Part shown: piece after piece, positions 7,446 to 10,988 of the stretch
Layout of the letters: every line of letters begins with the position of its first letter
How positions within the stretch are numbered: position 1 is the first letter of the stretch
Assembly (NCBI GenBank): GCA_964410505.1
Contig: CAYPGR010000002.1
Coordinates: 15,939 to 79,938, forward strand
Direction: 5' to 3'
DNA length: 64,000 nucleotides
Source: an uncultured Staphylococcaceae bacterium
GTDB taxonomy: Bacteria; Bacillota_I; Bacilli_A; RFN20; CAG-826
The notes under the pieces: model-generated
The model's input: the letters and a program-made list of their open reading frames with translations, nothing else
What the model was told of the DNA's origin: nothing
Databases searched by the model: none
Translations under genes and position numbers: made by a program

Positions 7446-7543
7446 AGGTAAAAATAAATTATGTTGTTATTTATTCCTATAGCCTTTTTGCTATGCTTAA
7501 CCTGTAGCGATTTTCGCTAAAAATGAATAAAAGGAGATTCAAC

Positions 7544-8416
7544 ATGAATAAATTCGTGATTATTACTGACGCGACATGTGACTTACCACAAGCGCTTGTG
7601 GCCGCCCATAAACTTGATTATATTCCAATGGAAGTTAATTTTGGAGAAGAAGTTATTAAACAATATTTAGATGAAAGAGACTTCAAATTGGTGGATTTCT
7701 ATAAACGACTTGATAATAAAGAACTTGCGAAGACAAGCTTAATCAATATGCAAACGTTTATGGAAAAATTCACCCCTTATTTAGAAAAGGGAATCGATGT
7801 GATCTACATCGGTATTAGTAGTAACTTGTCAGCGAGTTTTGCCCAAGCAAACTTAGCTAAGGAAGAATTAGAACATACTTTTAAAGGTCGTACAGTACGG
7901 CTTGTCGATAGCAAGAGTGCAAGTATCGCCGAGGGCGTTCTTGTTTTAGAAGCACTCAAGAAACAAGAAGAAGGTCATAGTCTTGAAGAAGTCGCCCGCC
8001 ATGTTGAAAACATGGTCCAAAAAACGATTGCTTTTTTAGTGCCGATTAATCTTGATACATTACGGCGCGGGGGACGGGTGAGCGGCGTTAAGGCGCTTAT
8101 TGGTGACGCTTTCCGCATTAAACCAATCTTGAAGCTTGATGCTGAAGGTAAATTAAGCCAAGCTGGGAAAGCAAAAGGTTTTAAAATGGCCCTTCATACG
8201 ATTATTGATTTGACAAAAGAAAAGATTACAGGGCCATATAGTGGGCCTGTTTATATTGTCCACGCCAATAATGAGGCCGATGCCAAGTTATTAGGCGATT
8301 TATTCAAAGAAGCTCACGGTGGTGGTGATATAACAATTGGTGCTTTAGGCCCTGTTATCTCCGCACATACGGGAACAGGCGCTGTTTGCCTTGTTTTCTT
8401 TGGCAATAGCCGATAA
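7544..8416 (+). CDS. DegV/FakB family fatty-acid-binding protein
   Basis: IITDATCDLP, ISSNLSAS, DSKSAS, GGRV, KPIL, HTGTGA. Start at ATG 7544 after AAGGAG. Confidence 0.92.
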   Translation: MNKFVIITDATCDLPQALVAAHKLDYIPMEVNFGEEVIKQYLDERDFKLVDFYKRLDNKELAKTSLINMQTFMEKFTPYLEKGIDVIYIGISSNLSASFAQANLAKEELEHTFKGRTVRLVDSKSASIAEGVLVLEALKKQEEGHSLEEVARHVENMVQKTIAFLVPINLDTLRRGGRVSGVKALIGDAFRIKPILKLDAEGKLSQAGKAKGFKMALHTIIDLTKEKITGPYSGPVYIVHANNEADAKLLGDLFKEAHGGGDITIGALGPVISAHTGTGAVCLVFFGNSR

Positions 8417-8433
8417 TCAACGACCGATAATTG

Positions 8434-8466
8434 AAAAATAAATCCCCGTTCCTGGGGATTTTTTAT
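8434..8466. terminator. Bidirectional intrinsic terminator
   Basis: A-tract, AATCCCC-gttcct-GGGGATT hairpin, T-tract. Confidence 0.8.
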
Positions 8467-8576
8467 CTCTCTAGGGTTAGTAACTGCTTCCAAAATATTA
8501 AGTAAACCTATTTATTTTTATGCATTTTCATATGTTTTACACTTGTTTAAATATCGTTAAAATGTTTTCATAAATT

Positions 8577-9232
8577 ATGAAAAGTAAATATGTATCAATT
8601 AAAAAAGCCGCAGAAATACTTGGTGTTTCTGCGGATACCCTCCGTAGATGGGATAGAGAAGGAAAACTAACGACAATTAAAACCGAAGGAGGTCATCGTC
8701 GTTATGCTATTTCCGCATTACGTCCTTAATCAGTTCATAAGTTTAATCCGCTTGAAAGTCGGAGAACAATCGCCTATGCCCGAGTCTCAAGTCATGATCA
8801 AAAAGCTGATTTAGTTAGACAACAACAAGTATTAGAACTTTTTTGTGCGAAGAACGGTTGGACATATGAAATTATAAGTGATTTAGGTTCAGGAATGAAC
8901 TATCATAAAAAAGGATTAGTAAATTTACTTAACTTAATTTTAAGTGGGAAAATAGGACGTTTAGTGTTAACGCATAGAGATAGACTTCTTCGTTTTGGAG
9001 CTGAACTTTTTTTAGTGTTTGTGAAATTCAAGAAATTGAAGTTGTAATTATAAATAAGGGAAGTGAAGTTAGTTTTGAAGAAGAATTGGCGGGTGACGTC
9101 CTTGAAATTATAACTGTCTTCTCAGCGCGCCTCTACGGAGCAAAAAGTAAAAAGAATAAAAAATTAGTGGATGGACTTAGTAAAATTGCGCATGAGGTAA
9201 TAAGTGATACTAGCCCACCAGATCAAATTTGA
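8577..9232 (+). pseudogene. tnpA: IS607 tnpA (MerR-type HTH + serine recombinase), disrupted
   Basis: MKSKYVSIKKAAEILGVSADTLRRWDREGK, then AYARVSSHDQK and DRLLRFG, then EELAGDVLEIITVFSARLYG. In-frame TAA at 8727-8729 (codon 51) and a 1 nt frameshift in the T7 run at 9007-9013. Confidence 0.9.
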
Positions 9233-10307
9233 ACCAAACAACAAACAAGTAACTTACTTTAAAAAAGCAAGTGGTGTTGCCCGTTTTGCTTATAACTGGG
9301 CTCTTTCTTTCTACAAAGAACAACGTGAACTTGATGATACTTATAAATTTAACGAGATGGAACTCCGGAAGATTTTAAACTCCATAAAACATGAAAAATA
9401 TCCGTGGATGGATGAAGTAACGAAATGTGCGCCTCAACTCGCGATTAAAGTAAATCTTAACAATGCTTTTCGTAATTTCTTTAAAAAGAACGCTGAATAC
9501 CCAAAATTCCATAAAAAAGGAATTCATGACTCTTTTGCGCTTTCTAACGACCAATTCAAGATAAAAGATAATAAAGTGTGGATACCTAAACTTGGCTGGG
9601 TGAAGATGAGTGAAACACTTCGTTTTACTGGCAAAGTCATTAGTGCAACTATAAGCGGCCGTGCCGGACTGTGGTTCATTAGTGTTCAAGTCGAGATGCC
9701 AGATAAGGAAACGATTAGAAACGATAATGATGTAATAGGTGTTGATTTAGGCGTAGAAACACTTGTCACTCTATCAAACGGCGAAAAGTATCAAGGAGTG
9801 AAAGCAACCAAGAAATACGAAAAAAAATTAAGGAGGTTACAACAAAGTTTATCTAGATCGGTGGGGAGTAAAAAGGGAGAGAAAAAGTCGAATAATTTTT
9901 GTAAGAAACAAGCGAAGATAAGTAAACTTTATTTTAAGATTTTTAATGCTCGTAATAACCAAACACACGAGTTAACAACGATGATTGTGAAAACATATAA
10001 AACAATATGTGTTGAAGACTTACATGTTGAACAAATGCTTAGTGATAACAAGTATGCAAAGTATATAGCTGACAGTTCTTTTTATGAGTTTAGAAGACAA
10101 TTAGAATATAAAGCAAACCTTTATGGTTCTAATATGATTACCGCGGATACTTATTACCCCTCAAGTAAGATATGTTCTGGGTGTGGAAAGAAAAAAGAGA
10201 GTCTTTCAATAAGCGAAAGAACTTACACCTGCAGTTGTGGTCTATCTATTGACCGCGACATTAATGCGGCAATTAACTTACATAATTACGCACTGAAAAT
10301 AATATAA
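9204..10307 (+). CDS. tnpB: TnpB RNA-guided endonuclease (IS200/605/607 type), apparently intact
   Basis: N-terminal HTH (ARFAYNWAL), RuvC D (GVDLG), E (VEDL) and D (DRDINAA), zinc finger CSGC...CSC. GTG start overlaps the tnpA tail. Confidence 0.92.
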   Translation: MILAHQIKFEPNNKQVTYFKKASGVARFAYNWALSFYKEQRELDDTYKFNEMELRKILNSIKHEKYPWMDEVTKCAPQLAIKVNLNNAFRNFFKKNAEYPKFHKKGIHDSFALSNDQFKIKDNKVWIPKLGWVKMSETLRFTGKVISATISGRAGLWFISVQVEMPDKETIRNDNDVIGVDLGVETLVTLSNGEKYQGVKATKKYEKKLRRLQQSLSRSVGSKKGEKKSNNFCKKQAKISKLYFKIFNARNNQTHELTTMIVKTYKTICVEDLHVEQMLSDNKYAKYIADSSFYEFRRQLEYKANLYGSNMITADTYYPSSKICSGCGKKKESLSISERTYTCSCGLSIDRDINAAINLHNYALKII

Positions 10308-10455
10308 AGAAAAACTGCCGTGAGTTACACGGCGGCAGCCTGTGGAGAGTTCTCGCATTAGCCCCTCAATGAAGCAGGAATTGAACAGTAAGTTTAACTA
10401 GAAATAATTAGATTTACATAAGTTTCAAGTAACGGTTGGATAATAGGGACAGCGG
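10308..10455 (+). ncRNA. TnpB omega-RNA (reRNA) scaffold plus flank-derived guide; 5' end may overlap tnpB
   Basis: Hairpin GCCGTG-agtta-CACGGC and the GCCTGTGGAG...CTCAATGAAGCAGGAA core typical of tnpB 3' ends. Predicted guide TTGGATAATAGGGACAGCGG (10436-10455). Confidence 0.7.
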
Positions 10456-10988
10456 GCTTCGATACAACTCGGATTCTTTTTATAAAACCCGCATTTAATT
10501 GTTGTTAATTCCATCGTGAGATTTTCTTTTTCATTGATCCGTTTGACGGCCTCGGAGATTGATGTGAAGGCATTTCGTTTACAGCATCGTGGTCCACCGA
10601 TTGCGGCCATCTTATTGATGACGTTTGATGTATAAGTCATATTATCTCGATAATGTTCGTCGGTGGAGAGGGGGCCAGTTTCATAAATGATTGACATGGC
10701 TGCTCCAAGGGAAGTGACAGAACCACATACACCCCAAAACCCACACATCGCGCCTGGCATCGCCATCGTACGGCCTTTAAGGGTTTCAAGTGCTGCTTCA
10801 AGATCAAGATGCCCACCCGCATTCACATAGGCAGCAAGAAAAGCTCCGCCATCAAGAAAGTGATGTTCAGGTCCGTGCATATTGATGTAATCTTTGCGCA
10901 TAATCGAAAGCGCGATATGAAGCGGATTTTTCCCTTTAGCGGTTAAAAGCTCTTGTTTGATTAGATCGTACTTTTCAATGAGTTCCAT
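10425..10988 (-). CDS. DUF5714-like Cys-rich protein; last codons come from the IS right end
   Basis: HGPEHH, PGAMCGFWGVCG, GGPRCCKR, C-x6-C-x4-CPYY. Confidence 0.7.
   Translation of the reverse strand: MELIEKYDLIKQELLTAKGKNPLHIALSIMRKDYINMHGPEHHFLDGGAFLAAYVNAGGHLDLEAALETLKGRTMAMPGAMCGFWGVCGSVTSLGAAMSIIYETGPLSTDEHYRDNMTYTSNVINKMAAIGGPRCCKRNAFTSISEAVKRINEKENLTMELTTIKCGFYKKNPSCIEARCPYYPTVT

Follow-up and report, generated by a model that had tools for sequence, protein, structure and literature searches.

We found that the 64,000-nucleotide stretch of DNA analysed here (the window, to which all positions refer) carries a single-copy IS607-family insertion sequence, composed of a serine-recombinase tnpA, a tnpB, and a RAGATH-18-type omega/reRNA, in which tnpA is broken by two lesions and lies beside an intact tnpB and an intact RNA scaffold. 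Recent decay of tnpA probably explains this combination, because the lesions are private to the window, sister copies in other strains carry an intact tnpA, and tnpB and the RNA show no private change. The original prediction from the sequence, an IS607 element with a dead tnpA, an intact tnpB and an intact omega-RNA, was borne out, with each of its features in place; it had mentioned recent decay as one alternative, and this is the explanation that we favor, the lesions being strain-private and all seven sister copies encoding an intact tnpA. The host is an uncultured bacterium with a 98% complete genome of 1.11 Mb in 18 contigs.

Extent and setting of the element

The features of the locus are as follows.

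8440-8461, both strands: bidirectional terminator hairpin of the DegV gene (7523-8416), found by a terminator-like site scan
8474-8476, plus strand: GGG adjoining the left end, including the GG crossover dinucleotide (8475-8476); predicted TAM (NGGG)
8475-10435, 1.96 kb: whole IS607-family element, from the sequence and other copies
8477-8576, plus strand: non-coding left end; homology with other copies begins at TTAGTAAC
8577-9232, plus strand: tnpA pseudogene for an IS607 transposase of the serine-recombinase type, with a MerR-type HTH at its N-terminus, from domain matches and comparison with sister copies
9204-10307, plus strand: tnpB, an intact 367-aa RNA-guided nuclease gene, from Pfam, NCBIfam, and PDB matches
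10314-10435, plus strand: omega/reRNA scaffold, 122 nt, wholly 3' of the tnpB stop codon, from covariance model R1 and a sub-threshold Rfam match
10436-10455, plus strand: predicted 20-nt guide TTGGATAATAGGGACAGCGG in right-flank DNA; homology between copies ends at 10435
10425-10988, minus strand: DUF5714 gene, from the ORF list and sequence, with a Pfam DUF5714 match on the identical gene of assembly L023

The left boundary (GGG followed by TTAGTAAC, between 8476 and 8477) was set by the differing left flanks among copies, and the right boundary (...GTAACGG, ending at 10435) by four different right flanks together with a 27-nt solo right-end remnant elsewhere in the same genome, which terminates at the same GG. 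Homology between copies at differing sites stops at ...CAAGTAACGG (10435). Since near-identical copies are flanked by four different sequences on the right and three on the left, the element occurs at different sites. The GG core dinucleotide stands at both junctions (...GG before TTAGTAAC on the left, GG after ...GTAAC on the right) in all copies, at four different sites, and a search of the element for terminal inverted repeats found none. The junctions, with GG as the core dinucleotide on each side, thus have the architecture of IS607 elements. The tnpA fragments match the MerR-type HTH (1.4e-15) and Resolvase_N (2.5e-15) domains of Pfam, and the intact same-site sister protein of 218 aa, which scores 208 bits against the NCBIfam IS607 transposase model NF033518 (cut-off 110), places the element in the IS607 family. 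A promoter-like site, TTTACA-16-TAAAAT, precedes tnpA at 8536-8563 (promoter scan, score 10 of 12).

On one side of the element stands the DegV gene and on the other the 3' end of the DUF5714 gene; the insertion is found at this site in other strains of the species too. The terminator at 8440-8461 belongs to the left-flank DNA outside the element, a flank common to the same-site sister copies, and until the insertion it acted as terminator for the converging DUF5714 gene as well. The last 11 nt of the DUF5714 gene, including its stop codon, come from the right end of the IS. Judging from the joined flanks, the IS appears to have landed in the last four codons of this gene, so that the C-terminus has become ...PTVT* in place of the ...PTLER* expected from the empty site.

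The TnpB nuclease and its guide RNA

The tnpB gene starts with GTG, 6 nt after a GAGG Shine-Dalgarno sequence, and overlaps the 3' end of tnpA by 29 nt. Its product contains the Pfam domains HTH_OrfB_IS605, OrfB_IS605, and Cas12f1-like_TNB and scores 276 bits against the NCBIfam guided_TnpB model (cut-off 100). The best-matching solved relatives are an AI-designed ISDra2-like nuclease (PDB 9YYG, E=2.2e-59), the IS607 TnpB of ISFba1 (PDB 8IAZ, E=2.6e-51 over residues 6-361), and ISDra2 TnpB (PDB 8EXA and 8H1J, E=1.8e-48). The three RuvC acidic residues and the zinc finger that had been predicted for the 367-aa protein were located at D181, E271, and D352 and at C324, C327, C343, and C345, respectively; the triad aligns with D191/E278/D361 of ISDra2 and D194/E290/D371 of ISFba1. 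All 35 homologues compared (53-84% identity) have D181 and the four cysteines, and conservation is at least 90% at E271 and D352. We rejected D350 as the catalytic Asp. It first seemed to align because the 8IAZ chain, which appears to be a catalytic mutant (D371A), carries Ala at position 371; the conserved residue is D352, and the Ala of 8IAZ stands at the true position. With these sequence features intact, the protein is a compact (367 aa) RNA-guided nuclease candidate, as proposed.

The scaffold consists of hairpin 1 (10315-10335), a RAGATH-18-type core (10339-10380), a long-range stem pairing 10381-10385 with 10423-10427 and enclosing a stem-loop at 10388-10418, and a 3' tail ending in ...GUAACGG. 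Rfam RAGATH-18 (RF03064) matches 10339-10380 with 28.3 bits (E=0.017), short of the gathering score of 44.9, because the inner arm has 15 nt instead of 44; the window sequence retains the outer stem and the GGAG...AUGAAGCAGGAA core. The more distant relatives L039-L044 score 49-65 bits with the same model. A covariance model, R1, was built from five right ends, those of the window and of four relatives with TnpBs 41-74% identical. R1 scores the window scaffold highest, at 141 bits over its full length, a rank that follows by construction because the window is one of the five seed sequences. A search of 90 sources with R1 gave 67 matches, more than 60 of them full-length and directly 3' of a tnpB homologue. 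In an alignment of 61 distinct sequences, which was fitted to the model and so favors the structure, 91% of cells in the four helices are paired, compared with 39-44% when the partners are slid by 1-3 columns, and compensatory changes occur in 26 of the 27 pairs. This comparison demonstrates conservation of the RNA fold, with strong covariation. The scaffold ends in AACGG in about 90% of cases. That of the window is complete and has the same sequence in all seven full copies from the same species; the omega-RNA hairpins, described earlier as intact, are recovered within a full-length scaffold by the covariance model. For several viral homologues, right ends about 25 nt past the stop codon were considered and rejected, as the ORFs are over-extended and the covariance model sets the full scaffold there.

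The predicted guide at 10436-10455 falls within the final codons of the DUF5714 gene, which converges on the element, and the guide sequence is predicted to equal the target on the empty allele. A guide length of 20 nt is assumed by analogy with ISFba1, for which 20 nt is optimal (PMC11061315). A search of the window's own genome at up to 3 mismatches found no second match to the guide. GGG precedes the left end in seven independent insertions of the clade (TAGGG, AAGGGG, ACGGG, TTGGG, AAGGG, TTGGGG, and AAGGG). The TAM is therefore probably of a GGG type, and its likely exact form, NGGG, fits these insertions and the published IS607 systems. The earlier proposal of the guide TTGGATAATAGGGACAGCGG and of a TAM ending in GG is thus a reasonable one, consistent with the seven GGG flanks and the likeness to CboIS607.

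Two lesions in tnpA and their explanation

Reading frame 1 from 8577 meets TAA at 8727-8729, which is codon 51; a G-to-T change has produced this nonsense mutation (E51*), and the codon is GAA in seven near-identical copies from the same species. The second lesion is the loss of one A, which leaves a T7 run at 9007-9013 (window CTTTTTTTAG, sisters CTTATTTTTAG) and therefore shifts the tnpA frame near codon 145. Both had been noticed in the original reading, and the sister copies are intact at both places.

The seven full copies (L019, L024, L033, L034, L036, L037, and L038), found in metagenome assemblies of other strains, are 99.4-99.7% identical to the window copy, and every one of them encodes an intact 218-aa TnpA. 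Both flanks of L019 and L024 are those of the window, and L033 shares the DegV left flank. L034, L037, and L038 have the DUF5714 right flank as in the window but differ in the left flank, and these chimeric flanks imply recombination between copies. L036 has no informative flank. The chromosome flanking the L037 copy is 99.4% identical to that of the window over 3.5 kb; these are therefore strains of one species, and the divergence of the IS has kept pace with that of the chromosome. At least two copies existed in other strains of the species: L035 has one at a second site, which is IS-free in the window genome. In another near-identical copy, tnpB is split by an IS3 element and tnpA is broken. 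A column-by-column comparison with the seven copies revealed five changes private to the window, namely E51*, the 1-nt deletion, and three synonymous transitions (P58, I65, and H110); the left end, tnpB, and the RNA region have none. All five lie within 282 bp of tnpA; this clustering could reflect chance, relaxed constraint, or a recombined patch.

Relatives were drawn from metagenome contigs and viral contigs. In a class-wide search of 399 scored genomes, only five, counting the window's own, had a TnpB so close, and a scan of genome contigs with a single protein gave only one relative, at 53%. A search of JGI metagenomes with the joined flanks (the empty site) and with either allele of the nonsense site gave no match, the collection apparently being without the organism. 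We also considered L020 as an orthologous old insertion behind a DegV gene and rejected it, as the two DegV proteins are only 31% identical.

Errors of sequencing or assembly in an otherwise normal autonomous IS607 element might mimic such lesions, particularly as one of them makes a T7 homopolymer, where indel errors readily arise, and all seven sister copies are intact. However, L023 (GCA_041656375.1), another assembly whose contig ends differ, matches the window at 100% identity over 6.8 kb, both lesions included. Moreover, E51* results from a simple G-to-T substitution, the lost base is an A and not one of the Ts of a pre-existing run, and the three linked private synonymous substitutions mark a real, separate haplotype. 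We thus regard the lesions as real, strain-specific, and recent, and consider an artefact very improbable. A different reading is that the copy is non-autonomous yet mobile, being moved in trans by a TnpA encoded elsewhere; both of its ends are intact, and the multiple copies in other strains, L035 at the second site, and the chimeric flanks of L034, L037, and L038 would accord with it. A check for intact sister copies in the window's own 98%-complete genome turned up no other tnpA or tnpB, however, only the 27-nt solo right-end remnant, and the second site is IS-free there. Mobilization in trans by another copy, which had been suggested from the sequence, is thus unsupported, and we judge it extremely improbable.

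Selection might instead have kept TnpB and its guide RNA after the loss of tnpA, either as a site guard or allele drive against incoming IS-free alleles or in an exapted role. In a congeneric species, a tnpB-only derivative occurs on 13 contigs from many samples; tnpA and the left end are wholly gone from it, and the 367-aa TnpB and the scaffold are intact, so that TnpB can outlive tnpA for long in this lineage. Homing of CboIS607 TnpB into empty sites has been demonstrated in E. coli (PMC10690162), and the private changes of the window number five in tnpA and zero in tnpB and the RNA. The divergence from the sisters with intact tnpA (about 0.3-0.6%) is, however, too small for testing retention. 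Between IS lineages, the comparison of dN/dS between tnpB and tnpA that had been proposed gives a low omega for both genes, about 0.10 for tnpB and 0.09-0.21 for tnpA. The strong purifying selection on tnpB would accord with retention, but such selection acts on both genes and is what active elements should show. Most of the tnpB polymorphism within the species is nonsynonymous (five nonsynonymous to two synonymous changes), and it includes the zinc-finger change C343F in a strain with intact tnpA, giving no sign of special constraint on tnpB in these sequences; a McDonald-Kreitman-style contrast of this 5:2 polymorphism with the 76:112 divergence was not significant (p=0.13). A near-identical copy has its tnpB split by the IS3 insertion, the guide has no second target in the window's own genome, and TnpB, its RuvC site being intact, is not a TldR-like nuclease-dead regulator. 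The suggestion of a copy kept for the defense of its site or for some other role is unsupported: with tnpA dead and no other tnpA in the genome, no empty donor site arises for TnpB to cut. We consider such retention unlikely. Its more specific form, a fixed and selected TnpB-guide RNA cassette that destroys IS-free alleles entering by recombination, with the tnpB-only derivative of the congener as its end state, seems to us quite unlikely.

Under recent decay, the G-to-T nonsense change (E51*) and the 1-nt deletion would have destroyed tnpA lately in the window strain and left the element unable to excise or transpose; immobility is predicted for this copy. The tnpB gene and the guide RNA would be sequence-intact because there has been too little time for decay. 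TnpB, if produced by way of the left-end promoter and the Shine-Dalgarno sequence of its gene, would process the 3' UTR to a scaffold of about 122 nt with a 20-nt guide, and the complex would presumably cut only an IS-free allele reading GGG followed by TTGGATAATAGGGACAGCGG. With tnpA dead and no helper tnpA in the genome, no donor joint or empty site would arise, and TnpB would be without a substrate. The nuclease may thus be idle at present, in a genome no longer able to make the IS-free allele.

Relation to characterized IS607 systems

The element is a textbook tnpA-tnpB-reRNA unit, and a dead tnpA beside a live tnpB has already been reported for roughly a third of such loci: 30% of the IS607 TnpAs beside RAGATH-18 RNAs are pseudogenes (PMC11061315). 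In itself, therefore, the element matters little. The strain series, comprising an intact tnpA at the same site, the broken window copy, the IS3-split copy, and the tnpB-only derivative of the congener, documents how the decay of an IS begins at one locus. The clade, which combines a 367-aa TnpB with an unusually short scaffold (about 122 nt) and a simple GGG-type TAM, may interest collectors of compact editors.

RAGATH-18-derived reRNAs guide IS607 TnpBs with 20-nt guides and TAMs of AGGAG or GAGGG (Ren et al. 2024, PMC11061315). Like the window element, ISFba1 (Firmicutes bacterium AM43-11BH; PDB 8IAZ) has an IS607 TnpB, a guide RNA wholly 3' of the ORF and built around the RAGATH-18 GGAG...AUGAAGCAGGAA core, a matching RuvC triad, and a CxxC...CxC zinc finger. 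The window TnpB is 20 aa shorter (367 against 387 aa), and its scaffold is shorter too (about 122 nt, compared with 187 nt), owing to an inner RAGATH-18 arm of 15 nt. The TAM of ISFba1 is AGGAG, whereas the window flank suggests NGGG; the TAM-reading N121 of ISFba1 aligns with S114 of the window protein.

CboIS607 and CboIStron of Clostridium botulinum (Zedaveinyte et al., PMC10690162) share with the window element a serine-recombinase TnpA and the GG core dinucleotide. In CboIS607, the target choice of TnpA and the TAM of TnpB are both TGGG (PMC10690162), compared with the GGG that the flanks suggest for the window. The CboIS607 scaffold ends in ...UCGG and that of the window in ...AACGG; the C at -3 prevents self-cleavage in the former (PMC10690162), and as the two ends are alike in this C, the occupied site would be protected from self-cleavage in the window as well. 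The role of the Cbo TnpB is to cut the scarless donor joint, whereas the dead tnpA of the window leaves no donor joint. A further difference is that the window element has no group I intron. ISDra2 TnpB (IS200/IS605; PDB 8EXA and 8H1J) resembles the window protein in fold family, catalytic motifs, and the derivation of its guide from the right end, but is partnered by a Y1 transposase, has TTGAT as its TAM, and uses an omega-RNA overlapping the tnpB ORF. In the plasmid collection, the element found its closest DNA matches in ISCfe1 and ISChh1 of Campylobacter plasmids, likewise annotated as IS607 tnpA-tnpB pairs; they match mainly over tnpA, with 66-70% identity, and are distant relatives from a different host phylum.

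Private changes in tnpA and decay of near-identical copies

All five changes private to the strain that carries the window are located inside a 282-bp stretch of the tnpA pseudogene of the IS607-family element, and none was found in the other ~1.7 kb of the element.

Strain-private changes in the element
Window 8727-9008: one nonsense change, three synonymous changes and one 1-nt deletion

The clustering could be coincidental, could reflect relaxed constraint, or could stem from recombination with another copy that replaced this patch. Signs of decay were also found in other near-identical copies. At a third site, represented by L025-L032 from wastewater and other metagenomes, a copy ~99% identical in DNA carries an IS3-family element (rve and HTH_Tnp_1) inside tnpB, which it divides at codon 245; the tnpA of this copy is broken into ORFs of 154 aa and 72 aa. 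In L019, a sister strain with the IS at the same site as in the window, position 1793 (P0001) carries a TGC to TTC change that gives C343F in the TnpB zinc finger, which is probably damaging. Because tnpA is intact in this strain, either gene can be the first to decay.

Second insertion site and probable traces of other copies

The IS has a second site known from sister strains, the equivalent of which in the window genome (L141 ~1490-1501; G000:C1 ~114806-114817) is IS-free. In three sister strains (L034, L037, and L038), the left flank of this second site, which adjoins an AAA_14/DUF4143 gene missing from the window genome, is joined to the right flank of the window's site, and the right flank of the second site is present in L035. 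The mixed flanks in the three strains therefore point to recombination between two IS copies. At the second site, the window genome has the GC-rich GCGCGCAGCGAT in place of the AGGGGTATTGTT expected in the sisters, a sequence made up of the predicted TAM and the beginning of the target.

Elsewhere in the window's own genome, a solitary remnant of the IS right end, 27-28 nt long (AGATTTACATAAGTTTCAAGTAACGG; L002 1502-1528; G000:C14:5557-5584, minus strand), lies directly past the terminator of an EtfA-like gene and is followed by an apparent vWA-type ORF, seemingly truncated at its 5' end. The remnant probably marks where an older IS copy was lost through an adjacent deletion. L020 and L021, relatives with 84% identical TnpB, come from two independent assemblies that both break 43 nt past the tnpB stop, at the window equivalent of 10342 within the RNA scaffold, which suggests that the genome concerned has more than one copy of the distal right end.

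A tnpB-only derivative and the converging DUF5714 gene

In a congeneric species (L127-L136, and L005 from G005), tnpA and the left end are wholly missing from a tnpB-only derivative, which retains an ATG-initiated TnpB of 367 aa (69% identical), an AT-rich promoter-like region upstream of tnpB, and a complete scaffold downstream. In all, 13 contigs, drawn from many samples, encode the identical protein, and the flanks of the derivative contain tRNA-like fragments.

The DUF5714 gene converging on the window's IS (window 10425-10988, minus strand) encodes a Cys-rich protein of 187 aa, which matched the NCBIfam metal-binding double selenoprotein MbdU below threshold (108 bits; cut-off 600). On the minus strand, a T-rich run comes after omega-RNA hairpin 1 (window 10317-10333), and the site is scored as a terminator. 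The DUF5714 transcript, deprived of its own terminator by the IS insertion, may now end there.
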